DNA of 61,828 bases, counting the filler. It is 16 parts of 16 records of this genome, joined end to end, with 100 filler letters (N's around TTAATTAATTAA, not from the genome) between each part and the next. Parts side by side here need not be neighbours in the genome. Positions count along the whole stretch, not along the records: positions 51,563 to 54,621 come from SRR7504441_127825; 15 more parts are not named here. One strand, given 5' to 3'. The notes beneath the pieces were generated by a model, which was not told where the DNA came from, ran no database searches, and saw nothing but the letters and a program-made list of their open reading frames with translations. Within the stretch, counting starts at the first letter, position 1, and each line of letters opens with the position of its first letter. The position numbers were made by a program, and so were the translations under genes. Positions 10,103 to 57,347 of this stretch are shown here, piece by piece.

Positions 10103-10192
10103 TGGCTGTCTAATGCCACGCCAGCAGCCTGGTTGGGCCAGCTGAAGGAGGCGAATAACGGACATAACGCTTCAGCGGCCCTCGGGCGTGCA

Positions 10193-11066: not shown

Positions 11067-11450
11067 CCGATAACACTCCGCATTGCATTGTAATACATCG
11101 TTAAACCTATTTCATGCCTCCTACGCATCTCTCACCGGCTTCATGTGCCCAATGACAAATGTCCGTTATTAACCGGCTCAACATTGGTGCCGCCGCCATG
11201 GAGCCGGGCGAGTTCGAGTGTAANNNNNNNNNNNNNNNNNNNNNNNNNNNNNNNNNNNNNNNNNNNNTTAATTAATTAANNNNNNNNNNNNNNNNNNNNN
11301 NNNNNNNNNNNNNNNNNNNNNNNGCTCACGCGCCTCGCCGCTCATCCGGCCGCAGCGCCACCTGCAACCCAGTGCTCCCTCCTTTTTTGAGATGCAAAAC
11401 GGCCGCGTCACAAATCTCTCGCGGGCAGTTGTGGGGTCGGGTCGTAGGAG

Positions 11451-19185: not shown

Positions 19186-19697
19186 GCTGCTCCAACCACG
19201 ATCGTCAACGTGTTATGAGATACGCCCTTGTGCAAGACGCGCCATACGAGGGGAGTCACGATCATCCTGTATTTGCCTGAACCTGATCTGGCTGTTCTTC
19301 CGATGTTATTCCGACGTAGAGCGCTTGCAAACTCCAGCTGGGCCACGTACCCATTATTAGCTCCCGGTTGCATCCGTTGCGCACGAGCGCCCCAAGTATA
19401 GTACTAGAACTTGTCGATTGGTTGACGCCGCACCACGTACTATAGTGCCTACAAGTATAGTGGCTTAAGTGAATTGATGCGTGTCAATCAATAAATAAAT
19501 GTGTACTGTCTGGCCAGACGTTCCCGAGTCCAAAAAAAATCATGATGCCAATTAATTATAAGTACTTGTAATGGTACATTCATGAAAGTCGGGGCCNNNN
19601 NNNNNNNNNNNNNNNNNNNNNNNNNNNNNNNNNNNNNNNNTTAATTAATTAANNNNNNNNNNNNNNNNNNNNNNNNNNNNNNNNNNNNNNNNNNNNC

Positions 19698-24987: not shown

Positions 24988-25116
24988 TACATGCAACTCG
25001 GTTCAGATCTGGACTCGAAAGACAAGCTCACTCTACATCAAGACAAGCTCACTCTACATCACTCTACCTGTAGAGTGAGCTTGTCTTTCGAGTCCAAATC
25101 GTGCTAAGTGCATGTA
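24988..25116. mobile_element. MITE-like inverted-repeat element flanked by TA
   Basis: TA|CATGCA...TGCATG|TA termini. Inner arms 25006-25037 and 25069-25100 are complementary at 31/32. There is an internal tandem duplication of AAGACAAGCTCACTCTACATC. Confidence 0.6.
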
Positions 25117-29800: not shown

Positions 29801-32800
29801 AAGAGAAAGTCCTTAACCAATTGGACCCATCTGATCCTTTGGACTTTTGTCAATGGTTCGTGCGTCTCATGCTGTTGCGCTGGACCGCTCGACAGTTCCA
29901 ACAGGCGCCAGGGTCTACTTCGCGGCCAAAGCGCAGGCGTATGACCACAGCAGGGATGATATGCAAACTCCTTCGGTTAGGTATGTGCCTGACAATGTCA
30001 GGCAATGTGACATTATATGCTTGCAGGTCCCAAAATCAGAGGAGAATTTCTCAACTTGCTCAGCAGCAGCTCTACTCGCGGAGGTGCTCAATTCAAATGG
30101 GAGTGGAGTAGCCATTTGAGGCGCTTAGTGTTTCGCGCACTGCAGATGTCTATCAGTGGCTACAAGCATGAAGTGCTCAGTTGCGATCGTCAAAGCGATG
30201 CACCAGTCTTCGATTGCGGGGTCTGCACATGCTGCCAGCGACGGGCACTGCTCATGTCCGGTCTAAGCGTGCTGCATCATCTCACTGACCCCTCGCGAAT
30301 GGGCCACAAAAGAGGCAATATCAGGCTCTCATTGGATATTGAATCGGACTTTGTCCACTTGGGGGTTCCCTTCGTTGATGATTTGACACTGTTGTACGGG
30401 ATGTGTGGATACGACTGTCGCGTTTATAAAGAACAAGTCGCCTCGATGCGCCGCAGCAAGATCTCAGAAGACATTGCACGGGGCAAGGCGCATCACGACA
30501 GCGCGTTCTACTCAGCATGTGCTGTCTGGGAAAGAGCGCTCGAACTTTGGGGACAAGTTGGCAGCGTGTTATGCCACATAATTGATGGTTCACGACGAGA
30601 GACCCTGCGCCAGATGGTGACTGACATGATTCATTTAACAGCCAATCAAGATCACGGTCACGTAGATGCCAAAACGCTGCCTGACCCCATTCCCGTGAAC
30701 CGGCGCACGGCATACCAATGTGACGACTTAGCATCATTTTGGCTGTCACAGGAGTTGAAATACCACCATAGCATGCCTTGCGTCAACGCGATTCCGTCCA
30801 GGGTCGGTCTACAAAGAGGGCCGTTTGGCACCACAGGCAGAGAAAGTCAAGCCATGGACTGGGATCCGTTTGTAGGCCGCGGGCGGCCCAGTTGGTTTGG
30901 GCGATCCTCAAAATTGAGCAATGCAAGCAGCGAAAATGGCGAGATGTTTATACAGCGGTTTGATATGCTTCGGTCAGCTAATTCAGACGTGGACAGTGTT
31001 CTCAGTGCAAACACGGATGGAACCTTCAGCCACGCGATGTCTGGTGTATTTGGTTCTGCTGTGAAATGTCTAATGCATGTGCGGGAGCCTGAGCCTTGCC
31101 AGGCCAGCAGCAATCCTTTCGACGCTATGGATCAAGAGATGTGTCTCCTCCGCAGAGGCAGCTGCTGCAAGGCGTTCGGCGACCAAGATGCTTGTGGAAA
31201 ATGTAGGCTATGCCTGCAATCAGTATACGACAACGTTGCTCAAAAGCTTACGGCCGGAAATCTTGCGCTGGTGAACCTCGTGCGCCTTTTGATGAATATA
31301 CGTCAACTTTCGACGTCAGAATTCGATGGCGCTTCACTAAAAGCGAAAAGAGAGCAGGCCTTGTTCGTATCAATGAGCATCCTGCCTGAACGCATGGTTC
31401 ATCTGATCGGAGGTCTTCACCTCGGCCGGTTCTATACCTTCGAAATGCATCAACCACTGCACGCGAAATCCTCCGTTCACCAAGAGGATGGTCTGGGCAG
31501 CGACGATTCAGGACACGAGATTCGCCTTGCTATTCTTCGGCTTCAGAGAGCTCTGGCACATGGCATCGTGCCATCTGAATTGACGTCTGTCAATCTGCTC
31601 GTTCTACCAGGCGTCGCAGTGGCCAAACTTGATGAGCTCTTGCGCCGCAGCTGGGATGACCATTCGATGGAAGATGAGGTGTCGAGGGCCTTGAAGCTCT
31701 CTTCAGAGTGTGTTAATGATATCCAGAACAATTGTGTGTCGCCTCATTGCATGGATGCCGCTGCCCATTATGCCGCAGGTAAGGTTTGCGCTGCGCTTTC
31801 GCCTCAGCCTGGCACGCTCTGTTACCATGGGCACCCTTGTACGTCCCTTAAGTGCAAACATGGCCTTATGTCCAAATCGTCATTCGCGATTCGTTGTGCC
31901 ATATCTGCTTATAGAACAGCGTCTAAGTGTATGCACCGGACGCCACTGGAAACGCACCAGATTCGCTGCGGCACGTGCAACAAGCTTGTAGACGAGCAGG
32001 ATGCGGCATTAAGCATCCCCGACGTAAGCTTGAGCGACAAGCGGCACCGTAAATGGGCAGATGGCATACCAGATTCCTTTGAGGCTCATCGAAGGCTCAC
32101 ACGCTTTGAGTGTTGCAATGACCGAGCTACCGTGCCCATCGAAACGCAAGAGGTGAACTGCTTTTCTGTGGCTGTAGCTGCCGTGCAAGAAGCCATGCAG
32201 TATGTCGACGCGCAAAATGGCGAATCGCTGTCAGATCAGGTAGGAGAGGCGGTGGCTTCGCAGGTTGCGCAGGAGACCGCAGCATTGATCAATTCGATCG
32301 CACAGCTGCTTGCCTATGTGCAAACGTTAAACCGTGACTTCATACCTAAGCTGAAACTGCTTGCGTCACAGATGGCCTGTCGAATTCTGAAACACGCGTC
32401 TTGGCTGTTTCAATCTCTACATGAATCGAACATCGACACTGCATCGCAGTATGCAAACTCGTTTTGTCGGGCGAGGGAAGAAGATTCGGACTCAGACGAA
32501 GCTGAGCTGGGAAAATCCGATTCCTGGGAACGCATGAGGCGGGCCACTGTGCCAGAATCGGTCAAACGGCAGGTTGTCTTATCATCGCCGTTTACTCCTC
32601 TGATCTTCGACTCCGCTGATGGAGCTTCTCGTGCCGGTCTAGTAGGTACATACACTCCAACGTTAGAGGACTTGAAAGCCATCGAATGCTGGGAACTAGG
32701 TCTTGGGTTGGAAGCAATGGGGTCAGAAATATGGGAAACCAACAGCGGCTGCGTGCTCAAGCATCACAAGCGCGTGATTGAATCGAGATTGCGTTCGGCA

Positions 32801-33021
32801 CTTGCCTTGCAGTTGTACAGCCTCGTGACGTCGATGCGGCACTTGACGTTCGATGAGATCTGCATCTGCACTAACAGATGTGTTGGGCGTTGCCAACAAG
32901 CAGTGATCGACAGCACGCTACAGCTGAGCATGGCCCCGGAAATTGTCGGCTGGTTCAAGCGCGAGCTTGATGCAATGTCGGCTGGGCCGAGGTATCGTGC
33001 ACACGGGTCAAATCCTGCCAG
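26895..33021 (+). CDS. Very large (>2000 aa) helical protein of unknown function, truncated at both ends, one 46-nt intron 29981-30026
   Basis: The 1069-aa and 1018-aa ORFs join in frame (KLLRLG|PKIRGEFL) after removing GTATGT...TTGCAG. No family recognised. Confidence 0.7.
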
Positions 33022-33222
33022 NNNNNNNNNNNNNNNNNNNNNNNNNNNNNNNNNNNNNNNNNNNNTTAATTAATTAANNNNNNNNNNNNNNNNNNNNNNN
33101 NNNNNNNNNNNNNNNNNNNNNATAGAACTCAAGGAAGGTGCATGTATTACATGTACTACGCTCTAACTACGCTATGTGAGGCTCGTCTACCGTCTGGTGA
33201 GTGGTCGCCATGGGGTGGCAGA

Positions 33223-35951
33223 TTATATGTTCACATCAATCACGTACTCCTCCCTACTTGGTTGCGCAAATTGTGATACTGAAGCTATTGGACGGCTAGA
33301 TGTTGGCTTGTACTGAGGAGTTGCTTGCTCTGATAGCGAGACATTAGAATAGCACTCAATGCTATCATCGAAGGACACAGAGCGCTTCCTACCAAACAAA
33401 GGATCACTATCGAAGCAGGGGGGGCTGCCTAGTAGCTTCGCCAAATTGCGGTATTGAGTCGAGCTGAGAGGTGTCTAGGATGCCTGGCGTGCCTTTATCC
33501 TGCATTCTGAGATCAAGCATTGGTCTTCCGTCTGCAAGAGTGCCTGCATGTGAAGCACTCCCCGTGGCAACCGGCCGGGTGAGATTGGCGAGGGTGGATT
33601 GGACAGGCCATCCTGCTTCTCCCTTATCTCTGGAGGCATCTGCATGCAGCACTTAGCTTATCGGGCACTGATAGCGTTGCACCTCATCATGGACAAACAG
33701 TTCAGTCATCCGATCTTTGAACCGCTGAGCATAGAACGTTGGGTCATTCACGGAGATGGCCTCTTTTTTTATGCAGATCCGCTTGCACCTGCACCCATTC
33801 CGACTGGCAAATGTATGCATCACCAGTGCTCTGTGGTCTTAAATGTATCGTACGTCTGAAGAATGTCAATCACTCCAAAGCATAGCACAACCACTTCGCC
33901 CGACGACTTTATTCCGATAGTCCCACCATAGTCCCTCTGGAACACGTTGGTCTTCCGCTGTATTGTGGCCAGGGCTCCGGGTGATTTGACCTGCAAGTTC
34001 ACCTTTGGGTACCCATCGGCTCCCATAATAAACTGATCGCTCGGCAGGTAATGCACGCCTAAAAGCAGGGAATAGTCCATAATCGACATACTCTCGAGGA
34101 ACTGGGTGTCCACCTGAAGCTGTTCTAAGACCATATCGTTTGTTTCACGTGGGGTGTAAACCTGCCCTCCTCTCAGACAGGTCGAGCCCTGTGGCCCGAC
34201 CTGAAAACCCAGATCCAAGTCCTTTAGTACGACCCCTTCTGCCTTCTTTTTCTCGTTCTGAGTGATCCGACCGTGTGTTGAACCCTTGATATCGTACACC
34301 TGCCAGCTTGCAAGCTGAGTGGCTGGTGAATGGTAAGGGCCACCTCGTGCACCACCATGTCAAACATATTGCTCATTACCACAAGCCGGATTGGGGGCAT
34401 GTTGTGCGGTTTGACGCAGTACAGTCCATAGAACAGGGTTATGGTAGTATTGTCGTGCTTCATCACATGTTCGTAATAGTACGGCAGGATCCTCCTCAGG
34501 AACTGCGCCTCCTTCTTGGACACGGATTTGATCAGGTACTTCATGTCATGCGAAAAGTAAAACACGGCCCCAGACTTGCCAGGTGAGCCAAGCTCGCGCA
34601 GTGGAGCCTCGTCACATATCGACCCGAGGTAATCGTCCACAGTTATAGCATACTGCTCCCGGATCTGCCTAAATACATTAGGGCAATAGTCCTTAAACCC
34701 GAAATCTCGCGATGTATGCGGAGGGGTGGACACAGTGCCCTCCGCCGGGAACATCTCGTGGTGCTTAACCGAAAAGTCACTCAGAGTGATTCTGTTCCGC
34801 CGAGCTTCGTGGCAGACCTGGGTAGCGACGCGAATCCCGAGCTTCAGGTTAACCATAACTTCGTATGAGGGTGTCCCATTCACCACAAGTCTGCCCTTTT
34901 TTACCTTATATTTCTTGCGCCGGATATTTTCCGCCTCCACCCTGGGCATTGACCGGAACTTGGCGTCCGACTCAAGCCCTTCTAGACCAACCCCACTAGT
35001 CCTGGGCGAGCCAGGGAGCGAGACGTAACCAGTTGAATGGGGGGGGGTGAGCCCGAGCTGTTGGTGGTACCCAATCAGCTTTGACAGGCAACTCACCTGC
35101 AGCCGAGTGAGCCGAGGCCCGGCTAGTCGGCCCACCTGTAGGTCGAGTCCGTCCTCGCTGAACGCATTCCCAAACACCAGAGGCAGCGAGAACTCCCAGA
35201 TCGGCACAAGCGAGAGGTGATGAGTTTCAAAGCTGACGATCCAGGCGTGCAGCTGTGGCATCACAATCTGGAGCACGTGGATCGATGGCCGGGGCAGCAC
35301 GCTGAGCAGCCCGAGCATTGTGCTGACCCGCAGCGTCTCGTCCATAGACGACGCGCTCGCCACAGACAGGAAGGCGGCCAGAAGGCTGGGTGGGATGATC
35401 GCTTCTTCCAGCTGCACCAAGTACCCTCGGAGCGCGCCGACCGCCACCAGCGCATTAGTGGACTTGGGAACGCCTTGCACCACCCCGGAGAGCAGACCCC
35501 GCCAAAGCTTGTCGGCTTCGGTCATTTCAAACTCGTTGGGTTGGCGCTCGAGCTGCGCCGCGCTGTGGTGCGGCCCGAGAGCCTCCAGGTGGTTCGTCAG
35601 CTCTCTGACCACCCGGATGACCGACGATGTGCTTAGCCGGCCAGACCCACACCCCTGACGCTCCTCCCCCCAGGCGCCCTCGTCCGCGTCGCGCAGATCT
35701 GGTGTAGACATTGACCGGCGGACCGCCGGGAGCGAGGCTTCGAACAGCTCGACCGACACCTGACTGGGCGATGTACCCAGCTCAGGCGACCCCCGCTTGG
35801 CCCCCAATTCCATCCAGCCGTCACACATTCCCTTTTTCAAACATGGAGACGCCGCGGTGGGCTTTGGGGCGTTTGAAGGAGCGACGGAGCGGGTCTGGTC
35901 TGAGCACAACGGGGGGGGTAAATGGCACGTGGCGCCGACGGCCGACCCCAT
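33223..35951 (-). CDS. PI4P 5-kinase (PIP5K) with N-terminal RhoGAP-like domain
   Basis: PIP5K motifs NLKLGIR, FKDYCPNVFRQIRE, LRELGSPGKSGAVFYFSHDMKYLIKSV, YDIKGSTHGR, LKDLD, IMDYSLLLGVH, FGVIDILQTY and AISVNDPTFYAQRF. Upstream is GALRGYLVQLEEAIIP...LPRPSIHVLQIVMPQL...LPLVFG. The exact 3' end is uncertain. Confidence 0.85.
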
Positions 35952-36537
35952 CGACGGGACTCCTGGACTTCGGTCCCGGGAGGAGCCCGGCCTTTACCCG
36001 GCCCCTAGACTCAACTATTAATAAAATGTCATCGGGAAGTAGGTAGCGACTGACTGAGCATCTGGAGACTGCTCGGCGGTTGGAGGCGGTTGCATCTCAG
36101 GCGGGTGAGCACCGTTGAAATCGTTTAGTAAAACCTAGCTATGNNNNNNNNNNNNNNNNNNNNNNNNNNNNNNNNNNNNNNNNNNNNTTAATTAATTAAN
36201 NNNNNNNNNNNNNNNNNNNNNNNNNNNNNNNNNNNNNNNNNNNGTGTTATCGCCCTCATCCCCCAGTCCCATACTGTATTAAGTGGTCTCTCTAGAATTA
36301 CATGTACTTGTAGAATGGTGGGTCACCGTGGGTGATTGCGACATGCATAAAAACGAATTAAAGCGTGTTTACAATCGCCCTCTGTCATATGCGCCTTATC
36401 CATACTAAAGCGGCTCGACGTTCTATCGTTGTTTAATCTGCGCTACATTAATTTTCAATGAACCCAAGTTTTGCGGCCCACGGATGTGTCTCGGACTCGT
36501 ACTTAACTTGCTCGAGATCACGTGATTTTGTTCAAGA

Positions 36538-39509: not shown

Positions 39510-40673
39510 ATGATATCTACCCGCGCCCTTTGGGCGGTCGGGCTGTGCGTGGCGCTCGGGGCACCGCCGTCGGGGCCGGCGACCATCGTGCCCGGCCCGT
39601 ACACAGTCACCGCCACCCGGGGCAACGGCGGGCAACCGATCATCTCGTCCCACCTTCCTTCCTCGTCCGCCTTCGACCTGAACCTAGTCCCGGCCTTCCT
39701 CCTGCTGCCCGACCGCCAGCCGGCCCTGCTGGTGCGCTCGGTAAACGGCACCAACTGGAACCGTCCCAACGGCACTGCCAGTACCACCCTGCACCCGGAC
39801 CAGATCACCCTGGCCAAATTCGTGAGCAACCCAGCCAACGCCTCTGCGGTCCGGCTCACCCCGATCGGGGCGCGAGACGTGGTGCTCGCGCCGTCCGGTC
39901 CGAGGGAAGCCTGTGGAGTCCAGGACCCACGGGTGGTGTTTAATCCTGCTGACCAGACCTATTACATGACCTATTGCACCTACGGCCCGCCGCTGGCCCC
40001 GGACCCTAAGACCAACCCGGATGGCATTCTATGCGGGGATGCGGGGGTGGGGATCGCCACCTCCAAGGACCCGGAGCTGGCTGGATCGTGGGTACGCCGG
40101 GGGTACAATTGCAATGACGGCGCGTCGGGGGATCAGTGCGGCAAGTCGGCTGCGATGCTGGTGAGGCCGGCCGGGCCGCACTACATGTTCTGGGGGATCC
40201 CGCAGCTGGCCGTGAGTCAGTCGAGCGACCTGCTTCACTGGAGAGTGACCAACAGTTCGTGGCTGCTCCCGGATGCCAACTTCCAGGAGATGTGGGTGGA
40301 GGCAGGATCTCCGCCCCAACGGCTCAGCGACGGGAATTACATCATGAGCTACAATATCGCAGACCAGGCGCTACTGTAGGTATGTGCCAGTACTCATTTG
40401 GGGGGGCAGGATCTGTTCTGGGGGATTGGGTACCTGATTCTCGATGGCGATGATCCGACCAGGATAGTGCAAAGAGGCACGAGAATGCTCTGGCCGACCG
40501 AGCCGTGGGAGCAATGCGACAAGACCGCCGGCACCGCCTGGGAGCCCTACAAGAACTGCATTGGCGCAATGAACTCGCTGCATCCGCTCCCGGAGCCTGA
40601 CACTTTTCTCGGGTTTTATGTGGCGTGTGATGCCGTATGCGGGGTCGCCACTATCACCGTGACCAAGCATTAA
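39510..40673 (+). CDS. Secreted GH130-like five-bladed beta-propeller glycosidase, one 42-nt GC-AG intron 40368-40409
   Basis: Signal peptide; CGVQDPRVVF..DQTYYMTY, GIATSKDP..WVRRG, KSAAML, VEAGSPPQRLSDGNYIMSYN and GYLILDGDDPTRIVQR...PTEPWE. Confidence 0.78.
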
Positions 40674-40840: not shown

Positions 40841-43668
40841 ATGGCGTACGACTTCAGCAGCTGGCGGCAAGCCAACGAGGCGGCGCTGCTGATGAGCCTG
40901 CAGCTCTCGCTGGCTTGCGACCTGCTGGTGCTCTGGCTGGCGATGCGGCACCAGTGTGTCCGGCCGAGCAGCCAGACATGTATCTTCGTCTGCATTGTGC
41001 TGATGAACCTGATCAACTCGACCATCACCATCGTCGAGCTGCTCCTCTCCTCGGTCGACTGCGCCTCAGTCGCCCCGGTCACCGAGTTCTGTCTGATCGG
41101 AGGTGAGCTCTACGTGTTGCTCTTCTCCGCGAATCTCGTCCGGTGCCCGGCCCGGCCCGGCCCTGCGAGCCCCCGCCAGCTCTGTGAACAACCCATTCGC
41201 GCCCCCGCACCTGCGAGCATATGCCCTCCACGGGTTCGCGTTGTTCTCCGCCGGCTGCTTTGCTGTGGCCACTGCACTGTCGGTGCGGTGTTGGGCCGCT
41301 GGAGGGGCGAGCATGGGCGGCAGGGGCAGGGCGGCGAGTCGGTTCTGGGTCTATGCTGGATCCAGGCGGGCAATGGCGGCACTAGAGTGGACGACATTAA
41401 GCTGGACAAGTGGACAGGTGGCCTCTGCCGGAGGGGCGCGTGCCAGCTGGCTGGCAGTTTCACTGTTCTTAGCGCCGATGATAGTGATCTACGCCAGCAC
41501 GCTGGCCGGCTGGATATGGGTTTCCCGGCGACTGCACGCGCTGGCCCGGCTGCAGGGCGACCAGTCGCCAGCCAGCCCTGAGACTAGCTTTGTTGAAGCC
41601 ATGGCCGGTTCGATCAAGCTTGACCGGCAGGAGAGTGTGGAGTCAACCTGCTCTCTGCGCGAGTCGCTTAAACAGTCTGTCCAGGCGCAGGGCTCGGCCG
41701 TGCTGGCCTCGCTGGATACTCGAGCGGAGAAAATCAACCAGGTGCTCCGGCCTGGCTGGCGAGCTCGACCGTGGGGCAGCTGACCAAGATTATTGTTTTC
41801 TTTGTGGTGTACTGGACTATTGTAGGGATAGTGATGGCCATAGAAAAGACGGCCGCCGACTCGCCGGAGCTCGAGATGACGCTGTTGGTGCTGTTTGGCT
41901 CTAAGGGGACCCTTCTGCTCGGGCTGTGGCTCTGGATTCAGCCGAGCTGCAACCCTTCAGTCGCGCTGGCAGTGGCCTCCAGGAACAAAGGTATCAACTA
42001 CGCGCTTCGGAATGAGGTGCTCCGGATGACCACCGCCGGGATATGCGGCAGCCTGCTCATGCAGCGCTGGGCTCAGATTACGCTCCAGTATGTAATGCAC
42101 GAGGTGTTTTAATCAGGCACTCAGGCATGAGCGGTGTGTCAGGTTCACCTCCAGGACAAACTCCTCTACTGGCGGCTGCTCCTGTACGAGTTCTCGAGCA
42201 TCTCGCGCAGCCTGCCTGATATGGGCCACCAGCAGCAGTTTGAGGATTACTGCCCCATGCTGGTGCGGGCTTTGTCCGTTGCAGCTGCTGAGTGGTTGTG
42301 CCAGTTTCACCAGCTTCGGGAAGCCAGCGGGATCCACACCCGCGATTATATTCAGTCCATGTCCAAATCCGGCCGGGAGCAGTTCAGCGAGGGCGCCTCC
42401 GGGGCCTTTCTTTACTTTAAGGACAACCAGAGGTGCCTAGGGGTCGTATATTAAGGACTTCCAGCGGTGTTTCGCCTGGCAGTGAGTCTGAGTGTGTTGG
42501 GCATGTAGGTACATAGTTAAGACCTGTACCGACCGCGAGTTCAATTACTTGCTCAGGATCCTGCCCCGGCTGTGCAAGTACGTGAAGCAGCAACCTGACA
42601 GCTTGGTCAACGCCATCTGCGGTCTACATGCGGTGACCTTATACGATACCCGGATCAAGTTCATCGTTGTACCTTGCTTCCTGCACCAGTCGGGCCTGAA
42701 TGCTCTGGGCAGGTCCGGTCCTTCTACCACGGACTGCCAGTGCACCAGAGGTATGATCTCAAGGGGAGCTGGTACGGGCGCATGACTGTACCCAAGACCC
42801 CAGGCAAGCTAGCCAAGTGCCAGTACTGCAGTCTCAACTTTGTGGTGGGCGCGGCCGACAACCGGTGTGCCATGAATCCGAACGGTGCCCCGCACTTTTG
42901 ACAAGCCGCCTACTGCGGGGCAGGGTTTCGGCACGAATACTCGAGTGTTTGGAAGGATCTGAACTGGGAGTCTCGCATGCACTTGACAGACGAGCTGCGG
43001 GACAGGCTCTCGATCCAACTTTGCCAGGACGCCGACTTTTTGGCCTCGATCAACTGCATAGACTATAGCTTACTCGTCGGCATCTACAATTCCTACAACA
43101 AGATCAGCCGGAAGAAACGCCTATCCTCACGGAATGGGACGACGGACAGGCTTTCGTCACAAGCCGATTCGGCACAGGGTGCTGCTTCGGAGGAGCTAGA
43201 GGAGCAGCCTGGCCAAGCGGAAGGGGAGCACGAGCGGCTGCTGTCTGACGAGGCTCCGCTCCTGAATAGCCTTGGGGGTCTGGACGTGGTGGCTGTGGAA
43301 GGCCCTGCACAGTACTACGTGGCGGTGGGTGGGGTTTGGAGCGCTGGTTGAGTGCTGGTTAGGTGATTGATATTTTGAAGGAATGGGACTGGCTGTCGCG
43401 CCTGGAGCACTGGGTCAAGACCAGGCTGCTGTGCCAATCTGTTAACGGAATCTCGTGCCAGCCACCGAATGTGTATGCGAGCAGGTTCAAGCAACGGGTG
43501 GTCAAAGCGATAGTGGGTGGGCGCTCGGAGTTGCTCTCCTCGATGGAGGGATGGCCCTTGGGCGAACAGCTCGAGGAGATGCCCTCACTCGAGGCGATTT
43601 CTCCGCTCGGGTCTATAGAAGTAGAGGGTGACACACGAGGCAGCTCGGCACGAAGCCTCACTGTTTGA
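40841..43668 (+). CDS. GPCR-PIPK: seven-TM receptor fused to a phosphatidylinositol phosphate kinase
   Basis: About seven hydrophobic helices with NNPF and LCWIQ, then linker NYALRNEVLRMTTAGI. Kinase motifs follow: FEDYCP, FSEGASGAFLYF, YIVKT, YDLKGSWYGR, DADFLASINCIDYSLLVGI, VIDILKEW and ISCQPPNVYASRF. Confidence 0.87.
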
Positions 43669-43787
43669 ATAATTGTTTGATCAATAANNNNNNNNNNNNN
43701 NNNNNNNNNNNNNNNNNNNNNNNNNNNNNNNTTAATTAATTAANNNNNNNNNNNNNNNNNNNNNNNNNNNNNNNNNNNNNNNNNNNN

Positions 43788-47395: not shown

Positions 47396-47534
47396 NNNNN
47401 NNNNNNNNNNNNNNNNNNNNNNNNNNNNNNNNNNNNNNNTTAATTAATTAANNNNNNNNNNNNNNNNNNNNNNNNNNNNNNNNNNNNNNNNNNNNAGTGG
47501 GCACCGAGATCAATCATCCGGAACCATAGACTAT

Positions 47535-50500
47535 ATGCCAGCGCTTCGACTTCTGCGCGCCGAGGAAATGGCCGAGATGTTTGCCGGGATGTCCGAGGAG
47601 CAGATGGCCGAGATGTTTCCCGAGAAGGATGTGGAGCAGATGGCCGAGATGTTTGCCGAGGTGTCCCGTGGGGAAGATGAAATCCCTGCCCAGCAACTCG
47701 AAACCGTGATGCGGTCGCTCGGGCAGGATCCGACCGAGGACGAGCTGCAGGGCATGATCAGCGAGGTGGGGCACTCCGGCACCATCCACTTCGACGCGTT
47801 CTGCTACCTAATGATGTCCCGGAAGCAGGAAACAGGCCTCTTCGCGCCACAGGCGCCGCCGGGCTCCAGGCGAAGACGGACGGGAGGTAAGAAGCGACGC
47901 AGCACTGGGGCCGGCGGGAAGAAGCTGGTCCTGGGCGCCGAGCTCGCAGCGGGGGCAGAGCCGCTGTCTGCTGGGAAGGTGTACGGCGTGCAGGTGCGCG
48001 GAGCCCCAAATCCAGCAGTGAATGGTACCTACCGCGAGGCGGGTGTGGCGGATGGGGTGCCTTGCTTTGAGAATGGAGACACCGCGCTGATCAGGTGGAC
48101 GCCTCCCGCAGGAAGGTCCCGCAGGAAGCCCCCGAGCTGCTGGTACATCCTGCCCTGCCCTAATCCCGAGTCCAAGTCCGGCCCTCGCTGCCCGACGGAC
48201 AGTTGCTACTACCGTGTGAAGAGCGATGCGAACCACCCGCCGGCCCATCTGCTGTGGAAACCGAACAGCCTTGCCAGCCACTACGACGAGACTTCGCCAC
48301 CGTCAGGCCCTCGGCTCTCGTTGATCACGTCACCGTTATTTGAGCCCGCGCCTCCGACCGGCTCGATACTATCAACCGTTGGGAGCAATGTGATGATGCT
48401 CATCCTGCACCAGGTGTTGCCCAAAGACCGCATCAAACTCGCACAGAGCTGCTCAGAGTTCTGGCAGTTCGTCTCTAGGGGCGAAGTGGCTGCCCAAGTC
48501 TGGATGAGAACTGTGGAATGCTCTCTCTCGGTACTCAATCAGATATTCCCTCCTGGATGGGATGCTCAAGCTTCCTGGGTGCATGGAGATGGCAAGCTTG
48601 TGCAGGCGACATCTCGGTCTGCGCTCCGTGCAGTTGTTCTCTGCGGTGCTGCTGCCGCTCCGCAAATCGACTGGCTGTTGGAAATTGCACAGAGTGACAA
48701 CGGGGGTATAGGGCAACGTGTTGCAGTGCAATGGGCGCTGCTCACAGGGCTTTCAGAGCATCTCACTACAGCACAGATTGATAGAATTGCCAAATGGGAG
48801 AGCCCCGCCTTCCTGCAATCTGATTCTGAGGGTCTCTTTGATGAAGATTCTGAAGGTCTCTTTGCGCCCAAAGAGAATGCCAAAACATTAGTCACCGATC
48901 CACTTGCCATCGCTCTCCTCGTCAAACTTGGACCGCGTGCGAAACCTCATATCAAAGTGCTGGTGTCACTGCTGGATCGATTACCGATGTATGACAGGGT
49001 TACACCGATGTATAACAACCCTTTTGGAGCCACTTTTGGAGGCGAGTTTGGAGACGTCTATGGAATGGCAAAACAAGGAAGTACCAACGTCGGACTCCCA
49101 GCTACAACGTCAGATCCTCAAACCGCGCTACTGTCTCTCAGTGAACACTGGGATGAGTCTGATGTCAGCGCCATATTTGACATCGTGACTGCACTGTCGC
49201 AACCAAAAAGAAGTGCACTGTCGCAGTCGATGCAAACCCGGGGGATGGAGCTTGTAGCATTTAAAGCAGCGCTGCAGCTACTGTCGAATGCCAACGAGCT
49301 AGCAAAGCCGCATATTTCTGCGCTGATCCAGATAATGTGCTCTGGTGACGAGGTTCATGAGGTGCTCTTCTCGCACGAGCAACCCAAGCGGGCGGCGATA
49401 GACACAAGAGCAGAGCTCCGTAAGAGTGTGACTGCGACTCTGATTGCTCTCCGCGGCTTCTTCACTCCGGAGCACACATCAACCCTCGTAGCAATGCTGG
49501 TTGAACGGACGCAGATGGCACCTGCCCCAGCGGAAGCGAACGTTGGGATTACAGATGCAAGTGTGTTGGCTGAAATCAATGGACAGAAATCAGCAATCCG
49601 ACGTGCTTTGTGCAAAGTCCTTGGAGAACTAGAGCACTGCGGCGAAGAGACCCTTCAGATCCTTGTTGGAATGTTATCTTTCGACGTCGCAACGAGAGAG
49701 GGGTCACAGGATCGCGCCAAAGAGGCACGAATAGCAACTGAAGCTCTGATTAAGCTAGGTTCCAGAGGTGTACTTGATTCCAGAAGGCTCGATGCGCATG
49801 GTCCGGTACTGGCAGCTCTCCTGTGCCGCCAAGGTCCAGCGGCAGGCTTTGTGCTACACGTGCTTGCAGAATTCGGGCTTGCATTAAAACACATACCTCA
49901 GATCATCTCCGCGCTTTTTAACAAAAGCGAGTACACTGCACCTCGAGGGAGTCCACAAATAGATGCTTCTGCGCTTGCAGGATTAGATTGGGACTTTGAA
50001 GGTTTCTGCCAAGACCTGTACAATGCAGCGCAAGGAGTTGCTGGCGCGGGCGAGGATGGTCTACAGGTCGGGGCTTTCGTCCGGATCACTAACCATTACT
50101 TCAAGCTGGATCGCTGCAGCAGCCTTGACGTGTGTAGAAGTGTTTGCTCACTGCTGACAAAGATCAAACATGACATCAGTCCCGAAAAGATGGACTTTGC
50201 CCAATTCAAGCATGCAATGGCATTAGTGGCCATTCGAGTCGGAGTTCAAGGGCCTAGAGAAGATGAGATATGCACATTTGATCGAAATGACACGTATGCA
50301 TATGAGTATTCAGGCTTTCATGGCCATGAAGGGCGCGGCTTCCCGCGTGTGTCCACGAAGGCACGCGAGGTCCTGCTAGACAATTTGCAGCAGTTCTCTC
50401 CAGAGTCAGTCGAAGCCTTGATGAAATGGGTGCAATCGTTGAATGCGCGAATTGCTGAAGCAAAAGAGGAGATTGCGGGTGAATCTTCTTTTCCTGCACT

Positions 50501-51462
50501 ACCCGCTGCGCAAGAAATTAAAGCGCCTGCCGATGTCGTGCTGCTGACTTTCAGCGATGCGTCCGAAGCTTTGCAGCAAATCCTCGGTGTCCTTGACCAC
50601 GAGCCACTGGGCATGTTGCTGTTGCCTCACTTGGGCGTTCTGGTAGACTGCTGCTCCTGCGTCGGGGTTCTGCTCGGGCAGCACATGCGTAGAGCGCAAA
50701 GTCTTCAGGAACAGGGTGGCACTAAATATGCCATTCACCCCATTCTCTCCATTGTTACAAAAATAATCGCTGGAATCGCGCCTAAGCTCACTGCAGAGCA
50801 CGCAGCCTTGCTTTACTCTCAGCTCGGCAACTCCACCAATACGGACTCGAAGCTGTGCTTGCTCGCTATTTTCGAGGCTCTTGGATCGCACTTTGCGGAG
50901 CTACTTATTCCTTACCACGATTTTCTATTGACCCAACTCCTGTCTCCTGAACCTCAAGTGAGCTGGAAGGCCCGTGATGTTTTCGTTGCAATAGGGTCTC
51001 TTCTTGCCACAGAGCAAGTGGCTGCCGTTGCAGCCTGTCTTTCTAATTCCACAGCAAGTATTCGATTTGCAGCTGCATCTGTGCTTGGCGAACTCGGACC
51101 AGAAAAGGCTGCCCCGCATCTCCCTGCTATGGTGTGCATGCTGAGTCGTGACTGTGTGCTTCAGCGAGTGAGGATCCATTCAGGCCATTCAGGCCTGGAT
51201 CCATTCAGCAGTGAGGAGAAGCGCCACTCCGGCCTGGATCCATTCAGCGGCCTGGATCCATTCGGCATTGATCCTGAGGTGGGCGACGATTCGTTGAAAT
51301 CGGCTGGGGGCACTATCTGTATTGACAATTATGACAGTGACGATGACCACTTTATTCAGAACACGTACTACCAGTCCTCGCCATTCTGCAACAATTACTC
51401 TGAGGATCTGCGAACTTATAATCCGGCTTATAATTCGGACAATTACTCTGAGGATCTGCGTA
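47535..51462 (+). CDS. Calmodulin-N-lobe-like / F-box-like / HEAT-repeat protein, apparently intronless, 3'-truncated
   Basis: LETVMRSLGQDPTEDELQGMISEV.GTIHFDAFCYLMMSRK (calmodulin N-lobe); LSTVGSNVMMLILHQVLPKDRIKLAQSCSEFWQFV (F-box-like); HEAT-like IRFAAASVLGELGPEKAAPHLPAMV. Confidence 0.7.
47562..47660 (+). repeat. Coding tandem repeat, 3 x 36 nt (E/Q-MAEMF)
   Basis: ATGGCCGAGATGTTT at 47568, 47604 and 47640. Confidence 0.9.
51172..51462 (+). repeat. Coding repeats SGLDPF x3 and NYSEDLR x2 at contig end
   Basis: GGCCTGGATCCATTC occurs three times. ACAATTACTCTGAGGATCTGCG occurs at 51391 and 51439. Confidence 0.85.
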
Positions 51463-51724: not shown

Positions 51725-53285
51725 TTACCCCAGCCCGCCGTCCTCGTCGTCCGATGTTCGGCCTCGCTTGCGGCTAGCCACCTGTGAGTCTGTTGGCAGT
51801 TTGTCCACCAAGTCCTTGACCGGAACGCCCTCGAAAGCAATCTGGTAAACCATCACAAACAACGGGAACCTACCCCAACCATCAGACACCCACCTACCAA
51901 GCCCTAAGCGCGCACTCGTCCTCGCAGTTGAGCCCTCTGAGCGCTACCATGATGTCCTGAGCTGTGATCGTGCCTTGCAGCTTCTGCCCCTTGAGCAACT
52001 CGGCCTCAATACTGTCCCAGCTCTTCTGGCCCTCTGCCTTGGCAAATGCCTCCGCACATCTCCTGTTCCGCCCGCCGTAGCACGAGGTGATAAGGTCGGC
52101 CATCCCGCACGACTCTAGGAAAGTTGACGACTGAATCCCTTTAAAGAACTTACGGCAAAACCTGCCCCGCCATCGCTCCCGCGCTCGAGCTCAGTGGTGC
52201 ACCGCTCCATCTCAGCCAGCCCGATCCGCATGATCGCCGCCTTAGTGTTGCCACCGTAGCTGCCAGTCTTGGTTAGAACCAGCTCGGCCGCCGGCAGCCA
52301 CCCGAGGCCATCCGAGAATCCGGCAGCGAGCGCTACCACATTTTTGATTGCACCGCACAACTCGACTCCGGCCAGGTCCGTAACGGTCTTAATCCTGAAC
52401 TGCGCCGTGTTGAACAGCGCGTGGAACATCGCCCCGTTGCGCCTGCACACCGCACTCGCGCCGGCAGCTGGCCGGCCAACTGACGGTATCCTAGTGCCGA
52501 TTGTGGCCTCAGAGAACTCCCCTCGAGCCACCTACCTTAGCTCAGAGCAGACAGCGGCAGCTCACGCCTCGTCGGCCACGTTGGCTCCCATGAGCACTGG
52601 CCGCCCAGTGAGCGCTGGCCAGCGGCGGCGGGCACCGGCGCAGTCGACCCCAAGCGCAGCCCGGATGATGTCGCTTATGAGAAGAGGGGAGCCCGACTCG
52701 TCAAACTCGACCCCTTTGATCAGCGAGATCGCCCGACACTGTTTGGGCTTGACCTGCAAGGCCTGTCGGCTGCGGGGTGCGCCGCTCGGGCCGCCTGGTA
52801 GATCTCGCCGAGCAGCCCTCGAAGGAACTGGTGCGGCACCGCGAACACCAAGATGTTGGCGTCCTTGGCTGCCTCACGCAGCTCAGGGATAGCCACTACG
52901 TTCTCCGGGAGCTTGGCGCCTTTGAGGTACTGACAGGGCGACCGGTCAGCCTGGCCAGCCTGGGGGCGGTGCCTTGGGATTCTCGTGCGTCTCGTTGATC
53001 ACCTCCGAGAGCTTCTGGCCGTTGTAGTCCTCCTCGAACACCCACATCCGGACCCTAGGCCGTTGGTCCCGGCCCGGGCCCGGGATCGGTCACCGGTCGG
53101 CAAACTTGCTGTGGTGAGTCACATTTTCGCCCACGATTCGCGCCACCGCCGAGCCCCTGCCCGGCCGATCCGGCGGATAGCGCATGGCAGAGGAGGGACC
53201 AGTTGCCGCTGCCCACGATGCATACCGACTCCTCGAGCTGGCCGTCCTGCTGGTCTCTGGCCTTGGCCGGCCGGTTCTGGTTCAT
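51725..53285 (-). CDS. GPD1: Glycerol-3-phosphate dehydrogenase [NAD+], 382 aa, 10 introns
   Basis: Removing introns 53157-53199, 53055-53093, 52930-52972, 52754-52794, 52597-52635, 52532-52567, 52443-52484, 52260-52301, 52162-52202 and 51870-51915 gives an open 1149-nt CDS. It contains [88 protein letters not shown] and FPLF. Confidence 0.96.
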
Positions 53286-53415
53286 TGTGCCACCCTACAG
53301 TGCCTGGTCGGCGATCCTAACAGCCGTGGCCACTTGGCGGCGGATCCTAACTGAGGCACTTAGAAGTTAGAATAGGAGTTAGATCCGCCGGCCCGGCAGT
53401 GTAGGGTGGGGCACA
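53286..53415. mobile_element. Degenerate inverted-repeat (MITE-like) element directly upstream of the GPD1 ATG
   Basis: Left arm TGTGCCACCCTACAGTGCCTGGTCGGCGATCCTAAC (53286-53321) versus reverse complement of right arm TGTGCCCCACCCTACACTGCCGGGCCGGCGGATCTAAC (53378-53415). An internal partial copy CGGCGGATCCTAACT is also present. Confidence 0.55.
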
Positions 53416-53634
53416 GTCGATGCCTCCCAAATCCAGGCCTACTTGGTACTGTTATCGTAAAGGTGCACGTGTTCAGATAACATTAGGGCGCAAATTAGGA
53501 CAATCATGACGGCTGCATGCACGGCAGCTGCACTGTATCAATCAAGTATGAAGTTCGAATGACATTGCAGACTGATTTCTTCCAATTAAATCATATCAAT
53601 AATTATGAGTGTGGAGACGCCGGCCAAATCTGCA

Positions 53635-54621
53635 CTAAACCTCCACTGTGCTCACAGCGTCGCATGACTCACGATACCGCCTGAGCCAGGGTGGGCCTAC
53701 CCTTTTAACAATGCCACCAGACAGGGCCAAAGAGTCGCACTCCCACACACGTCCAACCCAACCATCTTGCATTGAGGGGTGAGCAGCTCCTCGCTCGGGC
53801 TGCTTCGCCAGTCGCAAGGTCACATCTTTCTGGAAAATAGCATCAATTGTGAAGGCAGTGACAAGATCTTGGAGTGTTCCACTCAGTGGCAGTTGAGACA
53901 GCACGCGGCTTAGCACGAGCCTGCTGCACGCAAGCAGAGCGCCCAAATGACGCGCATTCCATGCTGCAGCCTCTGCAATGCTGAAAGCCTCGCGCAAGCA
54001 GTACTTGATGTGCTCCCCCGACCGCACACCCGTTCGCCCTCTTCTAAAAGTGATTTCCCGTCCCAAGGACTCACGGTACTCGTGGACGGTTTCCCAATCC
54101 CACAGAGTAAGATCCTCTTCGGAGCCCTTACAGACAGCGTCAGCCAAGGCAGCCGCCGCTGCGTATTTTTCGGCTGCAACATCAAGCTCACCACATGTGA
54201 TAGCACTGTACGCCAGCTCAAACAGCTTGGGGATCTCTGCGGCCGAGGAAGTCAGGCCCCCTAACTGCTTTAGTGCCGGGAGAGCCAGTTCATGGAAGAC
54301 ATTGAGCACGCCGCTGTCGTACAAATCTGAGCCGCCCCACCTCTCATCGAATTCGTACCCCTGGATACCAAGCACATACGGTGTTACATCACACTCCAGA
54401 AGACGCGCGCTCCGAGCCCTTCGCTCCTCCCACGCCAACTCTCCCTCCAGTGGTGCATCTGCATCCTCAGGGTTTATCATGCGCACCTCCACAAATGGAG
54501 GTCGTATCCGTCGGGGTCCACAAAAGGCGTCGACTTCGAGCTTTGTGGAGTCCGGAATCTCGCCCTTCGGGCTCCATTCTGCGGAGCGTGAGGCCTTGAC
54601 CCAGGACCCGCGTATTCCCAG
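53635..54621 (-). CDS. Hypothetical protein, 5'-truncated
   Basis: Open frame of more than 285 aa with protein-like composition, extending toward the contig end. No family recognised. Confidence 0.55.
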   Translation of the reverse strand: MGIRGSWVKASRSAEWSPKGEIPDSTKLEVDAFCGPRRIRPPFVEVRMINPEDADAPLEGELAWEERRARSARLLECDVTPYVLGIQGYEFDERWGGSDLYDSGVLNVFHELALPALKQLGGLTSSAAEIPKLFELAYSAITCGELDVAAEKYAAAAALADAVCKGSEEDLTLWDWETVHEYRESLGREITFRRGRTGVRSGEHIKYCLREAFSIAEAAAWNARHLGALLACSRLVLSRVLSQLPLSGTLQDLVTAFTIDAIFQKDVTLRLAKQPERGAAHPSMQDGWVGRVWECDSLALSGGIVKRVGPPWLRRYRESCDAVSTVEV

Positions 54622-55135: not shown

Positions 55136-57347
55136 ATGGACAGTTCGCACGACTCTGGCGACTTTGTGCACGTGAGCGCGATGGAAGCAGACAGCGCGCC
55201 GGTCCAGCTGGTCTACATCGACGACGACCAGCGGCTGCAGCTCAACCAGCCGGCGGTCGAGTACCTGCGCACGCTGCCCAAGCCGATCCACTGCATCACG
55301 CTGGCCGGAGTGGCCCGCGAGGGCAAGTCGACCTGGCTGACCATGTTCCGGCGCTGGTTGGACCTGGAGCTGGGCAAGGGCGACACCAACAGCCACTTCC
55401 AGATCTCCAAAGGGGTTGTGACCTGCACCGCCGGCAGCTGGATCTGGGCCACCACGGAGGTCGCCCAGCCCGCAGCCGGCCGGCGCGAGCCTGGGCCAGA
55501 TCCCTGGGGGCGTCGAGGGCACGCTGCTGCTGGTCGACACCCAGGGCCTGGCCTCGGGCAACCAAGAGGGGCTCAACCGGCTGTTCACATTCAGCGTGCT
55601 CCTCTCCAACGTGCTCGTGCTCAATGTGCTCAGACAGGCGCCCGCTCCCTCGGCGGCAGCCAGCCAGCACCAGGTGAACGACGACACGCTGAACAAGCTG
55701 GGTGCGGTCTCGGCTCTATCGCGGCTGGTGCAGGGCTCGGTGCCGCGCTGTGCGGCCAGGCCCTGAGCTGCTGCAGGTCGAAGTGTTCCCGGAGCTGTTT
55801 GCGCTGGTGCGCGACTTCGACCTGGACATCTCGGAGGACGGGTACGGCTCGAACGACGAGTACTTTGAGGACCTGCTCAAGCCGGACGGCTCGGGCGAGC
55901 GAGACGCGACCCGAGCGTCGATCAAGGCAATCTTCAGCTCGAGGCGGCTGATCAGCATGGAAGCCCCGTCCAAGTGCGGCCGAGCCGGCCGGGCGCGAGC
56001 CGGGGCAGGAGCGAGAAGGCCTTCCTGAACACCTGGAACAAGGACGGGTTCGACGCCAACTCGAGCCCCGGGCTGCCGCCTGACGGTAGGCTCCGAATGA
56101 TTGTGTGAGACTAGGGCAGGCGACTTCGTGGATTCGTTCAAGGAGACGGCGGCCGTTATCCTGGAGGCCACGCTTCGGAGTCCAAAGAAGCTTGGGGAGG
56201 CTGTAGTCGGTTTGGGTGCCACCGCCAGCTGCCTGACCGGTTGCCAGATGGCGAGATGCTGGTCGATCTCGCGGAGGAGATCGTCCAGAACATCAACGAC
56301 AAGCCGGTGGACCTGCACTCGGCGCTGCACTCTATCTTCAACGGCGTCTGTCGGAGGGCCACAGTGGCGGCCCGCGGGCAGGTGAGCGCCGACGTAGAGG
56401 CGCTTAAGGCCGAACTGCCGCTCCACCCGAGCAAGCTGGAGCCGGAGCTGCGCAGGGTCCAGGCCGCTGCCCTGGCCGCCTACCAAGGTCGCCCCCCCCG
56501 GGGCGGGGCCAAGATGAGCGGGAGGGCAGCCAAGGTGAGCGAGTCTGGCGTGCCGGACGAAGACGTGTGCAAGGCCGAGCACAAGGCGGAGCTCGAGGAG
56601 GCGCTAGACTACCAGGCGAGACTCACGGGGCGCGGGGGCGAGCCGGGCTGCAGTGGCACTTCGTGATCAAGGAGAACGAGAAGGTGGTGCTCGAGACCAT
56701 CCAGGAGGCCTCGATCCAGTTTGAAGACAAGCTCCGCCAGTCGGTCAGCTGCGGGCTGGCCAGCACCGACTCAGATGTAGGTGGACGAGCTGCCAATCGA
56801 CGACATGGCCGAGTACATTCAGCTGCACGAGGAGGCGACCACGCAGCTGGCGGAGGAGTTCAGCCTCAAGATATCAGTGGCCAACAAGGTGCGCCGAGCT
56901 GGGCTGCCGAGCATAGCTTCCCGCTCTAGGAAATGCAACAGAAAGCGATTGACAAGTTTGTGACAACCTCCAAGGACCTGAGACGGCGGAACATGGAGAG
57001 GGCCAGGCTAAAGGTGCTCGCGGACGCCGAGAAGAAGCAAAAGCTGATGCTTGCGGGGGCCGGTCTGTTACATAGCGCTCGCTATGATACCAAGACTGAG
57101 TGATTGGTCAGGTTTGCTGGTTATTGTGGCGATCGGGATCGATGGCGACCCATTCGATGAGTTATGGGCCGCTTTGCAAATCATGTGGTTTGTGCCGATA
57201 ATCATGGTCGGAATGGCGATCTACGTTGCTATTTACCAGCAAGCCCCACCGTATACTTGGGAAGTCCTGCAAGCAGCTCAAGAGTATGGCTCAATCGCCA
57301 AAAACGCAGTTGCTGCAAAGCCCCAAACCAAAGAAAAGGATGATTAA
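55136..57347 (+). CDS. Guanylate-binding protein/atlastin-like large GTPase with C-terminal TM segments, multi-intron
   Basis: G1 ITLAGVAREGKST, G2 VTCTAGSWIWA, G3 LLLVDTQGL, LFTFSVLLSNVLVLN and G4 LFALVRDF. A helical middle domain and hydrophobic tail (LLVIVAIGI...IMWFVPIIMVGMAIYVAIY) follow. Confidence 0.85.

Follow-up and report, generated by a model that had tools for sequence, protein, structure and literature searches.

Introns that are very short, that begin with GC or that carry G/C-rich donors have each been described in microbial eukaryotes. In Emiliania huxleyi, 56% of 241 manually mapped junctions are GC-AG, nine GC junctions were verified by reverse-transcription polymerase chain reaction, and the GC-AG share is ascribed by the authors to a genome GC content of 65%, according to the accessible part of that report (Feldmesser et al. 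2014, PMC4028052). Predicted GC-AG introns make up 14-17% in the pelagophytes Aureococcus anophagefferens and Pelagomonas calceolata, where they are likewise ascribed to high GC (bioRxiv 10.1101/2024.10.30.620910, accessible text). Outside chromosome 2, Ostreococcus lucimarinus uses GTGCGTG donors, an ACTGAC branch and CGCAG acceptors, and its intron density is sharply unequal between parts of the genome (Irimia and Roy 2008, PMC2483917, accessible text). Among diplonemids, median intron lengths are 41 nt in Diplonema japonicum, 42 nt in Sulcionema specki and 37 nt in Artemidia motanka; S. specki has a donor motif of G/GT only and a second U1 gene with a 5′ run of C, which may be fitted to G-rich donors, and S. 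specki and D. japonicum have 97-98% GT-AG introns, with YTRAY in only 8-14% of introns (Thakur et al. 2025, PMC12621601, accessible text). Here we analyse introns of about 40 nt, many with GC donors, in a window of 61,828 bases of DNA, starting from the gene for NAD-dependent glycerol-3-phosphate dehydrogenase (GPD1).

The window consists of 16 contigs, each of about 3-6 kb, with 15 joins that each comprise N44, a 12-base all-frame stop linker and N44 (for example, 3532-3631, 6655-6754 and 11224-11323); adjacency across the linkers is not genomic, and an origin from one organism is not assured. GC content is 49-63% in 2-kb windows. We find that the introns most probably belong to the ordinary major (U2-dependent) spliceosomal type, in a GC-rich marine protist, and have shrunk to a near-minimal 34-49 nt.

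RESULTS

GPD1 contains ten short introns, three of which have GC donors

GPD1 lies in the contig at 51563-54621 and occupies 51725-53285 on the minus strand, with its ATG at 53285 and its stop codon at 51725-51727. Reading in three frames and removing ten segments yields an open coding sequence of 1149 nt in 11 exons, which encodes 382 aa and is collinear with 13 full-length proteins, chosen from the 150 representatives listed by an all-database HMMER search with exon 10. The junctions sit in blocks conserved in these 13 proteins, such as GSGN|WGS, ENPK|YL and MER|FCRKF. Three closer relatives were found by a word-index search: P0151 and P0153, which according to their source are open reading frames (ORFs) of Trinity transcripts in EukProt, and P0152, which derives from a 1270-nt Logan contig. 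The spliced GPD1 protein is 75.0% identical to P0151 (261/348), 74.9% to P0153 (275/367) and 78.9% to P0152 (251/318), without a gap at any of the ten junctions.

In order, the gene comprises intron 1 (53157-53199, 43 nt, GT-AG, ctg|GTCCCT..GGGCAG|g) and intron 2 (53055-53093, 39 nt, GT-AG, GTGACC), both placed by spliced alignment; intron 3 (52930-52972, 43 nt, GC-AG, aag|GCACCG), which has CTGAC 16 nt from its 3′ end and whose junction ENPK|YLKG is kept in P0151, P0152 and P0153; intron 4 (52754-52794, 41 nt, GC-AG, cag|GCGGCC), with the junction IYQ|VK kept in P0153 and P0152; intron 5 (52597-52635, 39 nt, GT-AG, GTGCCC), placed by spliced alignment; intron 6 (52532-52567, 36 nt, GC-AG, gag|GCGTGA), where the frame is kept only with the GC donor; intron 7 (52443-52484, 42 nt, GT-AG, GTCAGT), which is in frame and stop-free; intron 8 (52260-52301, 42 nt, GT-AG, GTGGCT), with CTAAC 13 nt from its 3′ end; and intron 9 (52162-52202, 41 nt, GT-AG, GTGCAC) and intron 10 (51870-51915, 46 nt, GT-AG, GTGCGC), both placed by spliced alignment. 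The acceptor is AG in all ten. An earlier reading of this DNA, made from the letters alone and hereafter called the sequence-only reading, had described ten introns of 36-46 nt in GPD1, three of them GC-AG, with highly variable donor hexamers, and had listed eight of the ten given here; reading of frames and a donor-blind aligner rebuild that gene model.

The aligner, a custom program for spliced alignment of protein to DNA, charges GT and GC donors alike and allows no acceptor other than AG. With P0153 as the query, it recovers all ten introns exactly, together with two spurious ones in an unrelated N-terminal region, while more distant proteins recover nine, eight and eight of the ten. When seven donor dinucleotides are admitted at equal cost, the same ten introns are returned, all of them GT or GC. 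Restricting GPD1 to GT donors lowers the P0153 score from 1339 to 1164 (-175), adds seven gap columns and removes 22 identities, and the corresponding loss with P0152 is 168 score units. The GC donors of introns 3, 4 and 6 are thus demanded by homology and are not a modelling choice. An ab initio gene finder (dynamic programming on codon log-odds) recovered at most six of the ten introns with many false ones and was dropped.

Fifteen public sequencing runs, one of them RNA, share only 0.05-0.07 of the sampled words of the GPD1 contig, and all of them carry labels of aquatic, marine or seawater metagenomes. In two of these runs, nearly identical DNA contigs of 151 nt show a low-depth presence of the organism itself or of a close strain. 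A DNA contig from run X1, with 9 differing letters in 237 nt, lacks 4 nt of intron 1 (deletion at 53176), whereas its differences in exons 1 and 2 are all substitutions, a small independent hint in favour of the intron. In the same contig, at 53303-53461, the 157 nt that precede the GPD1 start give way to 95 other letters. Given the deletion in intron 1 and the different 5′ flank, we assign this contig to a related strain. In the public reads of X6 (RNA) and X1-X3 (DNA), no contig spans any GPD1 junction and no read lies over the GC donors. The X6 pieces that match GPD1 are 35-51 nt long, with three to four differing letters each and loose ends, and are therefore attributed to other organisms. 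A 259-nt RNA contig that differs by a single letter lies on the ORF neighbouring GPD1 (53641-53899).

Thirty-nine introns share a narrow length range and GC-rich splice signals

To GPD1 we added introns of other genes, giving 39 introns, each anchored by homology or reading frame, in nine genes on eight contigs. Class A, defined by spliced alignment to close or transcript-like homologues, contains the introns of GPD1 (10), a GBP-like gene (11) and a RhoGAP-PIP5K gene (5); class B, defined by flanking Pfam coordinates or a single solution, contains those of an alkaline ceramidase gene (1), a GH123 gene (1), a BK-like channel gene (3), a GH130-like gene (1) and a second PIP5K gene (3); class C contains four PKD/ion-channel-like junctions picked from short candidate lists. 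The transcript-derived proteins of relatives have no segments corresponding to the introns of GPD1, the GBP-like gene and RhoGAP-PIP5K.

The introns are 34-49 nt long in 38 of 39 cases, with one of 76 nt and a median of 40 nt, bearing out the uniform length of about 40 nt seen by the sequence-only reading. Their GC content averages 67% and reaches 89%. The borders are GY-AG in all 39, as expected of U2-type introns, AG being the sole acceptor that the aligner permits. GC-AG introns account for 7 of the 39 (18%, Wilson interval 9-33%), and for 5 of the 26 in class A, far above the usual level of about 1%, as had been claimed. Also as claimed, every GC donor follows exonic AG (7/7), as compared with 10 of 32 GT donors (Fisher p=0.0013). 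The exon ends before GC donors are CAG in five cases, AAG in one and GAG in one, and G occupies +3 in six of the seven. The trait that defines GC-AG introns elsewhere among eukaryotes is a stronger exon-end AG than in GT-AG introns, and the seven introns display it.

At the 5′ splice site, G stands at -1 in 35 of the 39 introns and in 28 of the 32 with GT donors. Among those 32, G is found at +3 in 22, C at +4 in 17 and G at +5 in 18; GTGC begins 16 of them where 3.6 are expected, a 4.5-fold enrichment (p=6e-8). The statement that G at +5 is mostly absent describes GPD1 (3/10) and fails for the window as a whole (21/39). Likewise, the supposed near-absence of an intronic donor consensus is right as to information content, about 0.9 bits over +3 to +6, and wrong in that a GTGC(G) form is preferred. 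Close upstream of the 3′ splice site, at 7-17 nt from the intron end, 20 of the 39 introns carry a CTNA motif corresponding to a YTNAY-like branch site, against 3.1 +/- 1.6 (maximum 10) in 2000 core shuffles, an enrichment of about 6-fold. The distances cluster at 10-13 nt, and the acceptor is the first AG downstream of the motif in 16 of the 20. The acceptor consensus is GGCAG|G, with C at -3 in 31 introns and T in 8, G at -4 and at -5 in 25 each, and G at +1 in 27. A polypyrimidine tract before the acceptor is typical of animals and plants and is not universal. The introns have none, the pyrimidine fraction of -16..-5 being 0.46 versus 0.51 in the rest of the intron and the G fraction of -10..-4 being 0.50, so that the earlier description of G-rich acceptors without such a tract stands. 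Since the first AG after the branch-like motif is mostly the one used, a pyrimidine tract would not be needed.

Signals in the introns argue against alternative explanations

The sequence-only reading took these features to mean that introns are defined mainly by their length and by pairing at the exon end, and named this its best candidate for an undescribed system in the window. The hypothesis is one of a modified spliceosome, with changes in U2AF, in the U6 ACAGA box or at the 5′ end of U1, that reads a fixed length and the exon end with few intronic donor bases. The weakness of +3 to +6, the lack of a pyrimidine tract, the very narrow spread of lengths, the G at -1 and the AG before all GC donors are what such a machinery would leave behind, and the accessible text on S. 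specki, with its bare G/GT donor, 42-nt median and second U1 with a 5′ run of C, offers a precedent (PMC12621601). Against it stand the enrichment of GTGC after the cut, the CTNA motif, whose distance to the 3′ end is fixed, and the clear acceptor consensus. Furthermore, in introns with GT donors a missing G at +5 is not made good by exonic AG (5/14 versus 5/18, p=0.71), and E. huxleyi and the pelagophytes show similar GC-AG use with no altered spliceosome reported in the accessible parts of the papers on them. Donor, branch and acceptor signals are thus all present in GC-rich, degenerate form, and definition by length plus exon end is not supported; we consider a modified spliceosome unlikely. 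The case for an undescribed system is weakened as well, since high GC-AG use, GTGCG donors and introns of about 41 nt with a bare G/GT donor are each already in print. What was observed is nevertheless confirmed, far beyond chance, and the interpretation placed on it is partly supported, in that weak donors and the coupling of AG to GC donors hold.

An artefact is very improbable. GC donors could be T-read-as-C errors, the contigs could mix organisms, or GPD1 could be a decaying pseudogene, and the assembly is indeed fragmentary (16 contigs of 3-6 kb), with no independent read over any GC donor. However, the GC donors all follow AG, and random T/C errors are therefore no explanation; the GPD1 frame is intact over 382 codons once spliced and the product is 75-79% identical to its relatives; and contigs 2, 4, 6, 9, 11, 14 and 15 are alike in donor type and intron length.

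Introns of the euglenid or hemistasiid-diplonemid kind, which depend on structure and not on a spliceosome, their ends being joined by base pairing, are a vanishingly improbable explanation: the shortness and high GC of the introns do recall them, as does the setting, a marine heterotroph rich in glycoside hydrolase genes, and A. motanka has non-canonical introns with a 37-nt median and C/G-rich 5′ ends (PMC12621601, accessible text), but the folding energy here does not fall below that of dinucleotide shuffles (mean z -0.01, one of 39 introns below -2) and the introns are therefore not of the euglenid type, all ten GPD1 donors are GT or GC with seven dinucleotides allowed and AG as the sole acceptor permitted, a branch-like motif is present, and no Diplonema protein is among the named GPD1 or PIP5K matches.

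Two intron classes were rejected. The longest substring common to any of the 39 introns is 11 nt, as compared with 10-13 nt in 20 shuffled sets, so that there is no sign of introner elements, that is, of a mobile intron family. U12-type introns have a rigid, extended RTATCC-type donor and a rigid branch box, and none of the 39 intron starts fits. Lengths divisible by three are not depleted (15, 14 and 10 introns for length mod 3 = 0, 1 and 2).

Several points weigh against the reading of these segments as ordinary U2-type introns with frequent GC donors. We infer excision from the proteins of relatives only, with no transcript of the organism itself over any junction. The donor relative entropy is 0.32, 0.23, 0.16 and 0.20 bits at +3 to +6, and 19 of the 39 introns lack CTNA at the expected place and thus have no recognisable branch signal. 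The 16 contigs may come from more than one organism, though their intron features agree. The GC share rests on 39 introns and on choices of selection: four of nine aligner introns based on the homologue P0271, three of them GC, were left out because they lie in unconserved protein ends; one PIP5K junction, GC by three of five homologues and GT by two, was left out, as were three junctions with 4, 12 and 13 candidates each; GT was chosen in the PKD-like gene where GC alternatives existed; and the GH130-like intron is GC in four of four frame candidates, with PDB matches too weak to anchor it. Because of these dropped or weak junctions, the counts should be read as estimates, and the GC share given here may be too low.

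Introns of the other genes

The GBP-like gene has 11 introns on the plus strand. P0270 and P0269 agree on intron 1 (55460-55499, 40 nt, GT-AG) and on intron 2 (55638-55673, 36 nt, GC-AG, cag|GCGCCC), for which a GT-only model scores lower. Intron 3 (55740-55776, 37 nt, GT-AG) is given by four of four homologues, and intron 4 (55974-56008, 35 nt, GT-AG) by P0270 and P0269. Introns 5 (56086-56119, 34 nt), 6 (56210-56247, 38 nt) and 7 (56488-56529, 42 nt), all GT-AG, are given by P0270 only. Introns 8 (56616-56653, 38 nt, GC-AG, cag|GCGAGA) and 9 (56744-56780, 37 nt, GT-AG) are less certain; both shift when seven donor types are allowed, with an alternative for intron 8 better by three score units. 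Introns 10 (56889-56929, 41 nt) and 11 (57063-57111, 49 nt), both GT-AG, follow from P0270. The sequence-only reading had described several GC-AG introns across the PKD2, SLC35 and GBP genes; in the GBP-like gene there are two among the 11, one firm (intron 2) and one less firm (intron 8).

The window contains two PIP5K genes, one at 33122-36143 on the minus strand, fused to RhoGAP, and the other at 41500-43687 on the plus strand. The RhoGAP-PIP5K architecture also occurs in P0271, a transcriptome protein 59% identical, and in P0272, from a Joint Genome Institute (JGI) metagenome. In the fused gene, five GT-AG introns on the minus strand were placed: 35097-35135 (39 nt), which is in frame within a 589-codon ORF and rests on P0271; 34300-34343 (44 nt), by P0271 and P0272, with the junction VVHE|VYDIKGS identical in P0271; 34162-34200 (39 nt) and 33789-33823 (35 nt), each by P0271 and P0272; and 33640-33682 (43 nt), by P0271 only. 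The intron at 35097-35135 (-), like GPD1 intron 7 at 52443-52484 (-), is in frame and stop-free, and both conceal themselves in apparent ORFs. Two of the comparison proteins, P0151 and P0271, begin with the peptides …DVYKRQ and MCIRDS…, which we take to be library adaptor read-through; if so, these N-termini are artefacts and the libraries were of low input.

The second PIP5K gene has GT-AG introns on the plus strand at 42263-42304 (42 nt, GTGCGG) and 42433-42508 (76 nt, the sole intron outside 34-49 nt), each by five of five homologues, and at 43325-43362 (38 nt), by two of five; for the last, P0271 keeps the acceptor but shifts the donor 9 nt downstream.

In the alkaline ceramidase gene, the intron at 10720-10759 (+) is 40 nt, GC-AG, cag|GCGAGC, and falls between positions 154 and 160 of Pfam PF05875. 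All 24 frame-keeping GY-AG candidates listed for 10690-10775 have GC donors, as the sequence-only reading of this intron as GC-AG implied, and the one after CAG fits the Pfam spacing exactly. That reading had also made the single intron of the GH130-like gene GC-AG. The probable intron there, at 40368-40409 (+), is 42 nt, GC-AG, cag|GCGCTA, and removes an in-frame stop; the frame logic favours the claim, while the attempt to anchor it by homology failed.

The BK/Slo-like channel gene has three GT-AG introns on the plus strand: 12427-12463 (37 nt, GTGCTG), whose removal joins positions 38 and 39 of Ion_trans_2 and restores TTVGYGD, and 12911-12946 (36 nt, GTGCGT) and 13994-14035 (42 nt, GTAAGT), each the sole frame-keeping candidate. 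In the PKD/ion-channel-like gene, the four junctions, all GT-AG on the plus strand, are 5158-5197 (40 nt, GTGCGG), one of five candidates and of lower confidence; 5303-5341 (39 nt, or 45, GTGCCC), where both candidates use the same GT donor; 5833-5873 (41 nt, GTGCGT), the sole candidate; and 5967-6005 (39 nt, or 36, GTGCGC), with a donor common to two of three candidates. No GC donor was accepted in this gene, and two of its junctions are ambiguous.

The GH123 gene (19697-22647, +) has a Pfam match at E=1e-155, and its nearest atlas clusters are from Bacteroidota only; yet it contains a typical GT-AG intron of 43 nt with the donor GTGCGC at 22070-22112 (+), the sole candidate, between positions 802 and 804 of Pfam PF19543. 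It is a candidate for a gene taken from bacteria that gained its intron later.

Intron density is very uneven. GPD1 has ten introns per 1.15 kb of coding sequence and the GBP-like gene has 11, as against long ORFs with no sign of introns, which include 47496-51460, 26895-33021, 19697-22069 and 6954-10171. A strict intron-motif filter applied to eight long ORFs (18.6 kb) gave 7 sense and 19 antisense matches; since this filter finds only 7 of the 39 known introns, the result is weak evidence that the long ORFs are free of introns.

Gene content and relatives

Pfam searches of the window identified eukaryotic genes for GH59, GH123, RCC1 repeats, the RhoGAP-PIP5K fusion and the BK/Slo-like channel, and further for the alkaline ceramidase, the GBP-like GTPase and an EamA/SLC35-like transporter, with a weak match to GH130. 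A search with Rfam at gathering thresholds gave no match in the window, which hence contains no small nuclear RNA (snRNA) gene; below threshold, at E<0.1, there are two matches, at chance level. A sub-threshold match to a plant microRNA precursor at 24994-25109 (-), which scores 38 bits where the gathering threshold is 100, is most likely due to chance. A search of the window for tRNA genes found none. The contig ending at 51462 closes with a short direct repeat (51400-51462), in which ctgaggatctgcg occurs twice, about 50 nt apart.

Among named proteins, GPD1 exon 10 matches those of a red alga at 64%, of two haptophytes at 60-62% and of a plant at 57%, which does not discriminate the lineage; the closest proteins are transcriptome or metagenome entries. 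In a PDB search, GPD1 groups with the animal-type enzyme (377 bits) and not with the Leishmania type (98 bits). A scan of JGI metagenomes with P0153 found six loci, the best 54% identical, and there is therefore no close genomic relative for comparison of introns. An atlas search with a 1321-aa ORF gave no match. A diplonemid origin, raised by the introns of about 41 nt and the many glycoside hydrolases, is not supported.

DISCUSSION

The introns of this window are probably minimal introns with composition-driven GC-AG use, and each of their traits has published precedent. If they are U2-type introns, they would be recognised across the intron, with about 25 nt from donor to branch and about 12 nt from branch to AG, distances close to the smallest with which spliceosomes are known to work. 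The donor would consist of G at -1 and GT, followed in half of the cases by GC at +3/+4; the branch-like CTNA about 12 nt from the 3′ end would serve as the branch site, and GGCAG|G, without a pyrimidine tract, as the acceptor. About one donor in five would carry C for T at +2, with the exon then supplying AG, usually CAG. By analogy with other GC-AG introns, the pairing lost at +2 may be made up by U1, and later by U5, on the exon end; such exon-end compensation has long been described for animals and plants. GC pressure on non-coding DNA would account for the G/C-rich signals and for the supply of T-to-C changes at +2, plausibly driving them where the exon end permits.

The practical consequence is that gene finders requiring GT donors or a pyrimidine tract would mis-model this organism, as GPD1 illustrates when only GT is allowed (22 identities lost and seven gaps gained). 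The organism is one more GC-rich marine protist that tolerates T-to-C at +2 when the exon ends in AG, and it supports the view that the frequency of GC-AG introns follows base composition and not a new mechanism. The case would matter more only if the lineage were new and its snRNAs altered. We assign a low probability to a further reading, in which the organism belongs to a lineage of marine heterotrophs that has no genome described so far and whose spliceosome is adapted to GC-rich minimal introns, for example through a U1 variant matching GUGCG or GC donors, and through recognition of the 3′ site free of a pyrimidine tract; if this were true, it would be a natural model for the re-tuning of the 5′ splice site under GC pressure.

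The introns of the window share something with each of the described systems, as far as the accessible parts of the respective reports go. The combination of about 40 nt, about 18% GC-AG and a loose GTGC donor was not found in one organism in the literature searched, which, without placement of the lineage, is not proof that it is unpublished. Diplonemids resemble the window in their medians of 41-42 nt, and S. specki also in its G/GT donor, its G-rich intron motif, its pyrimidine tract, which is the shortest, and the fragmentary draft assemblies; however, 97-98% GT-AG is incompatible with 7 GC-AG introns in 39. E. huxleyi is, like the source of the window, a marine protist of high GC content whose donors are often GC while its acceptors remain AG, but its GC donors amount to 56-60%, as against about 18% here, and the GPD1 exon in the window is only 60-62% identical to the named haptophyte matches, Prymnesium and Chrysochromulina. 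The pelagophytes have GC-AG introns in the same range as the window (14-17%), whereas their introns average 103-177 bp and number 0.19-0.92 per gene, in contrast to about 40 nt and 10-11 in some genes here. O. lucimarinus outside chromosome 2, in a GC-rich marine picoeukaryote, shares the GTGCG-type donor, the CGCAG-like acceptor and the uneven intron density, with no mention of GC-AG introns; it differs in its rigid donor (4.8 bits), in ACTGAC at 87% and in a branch 20-35 nt from AG, whereas in the window donor and branch are loose and the branch-like motif lies 10-13 nt from AG.

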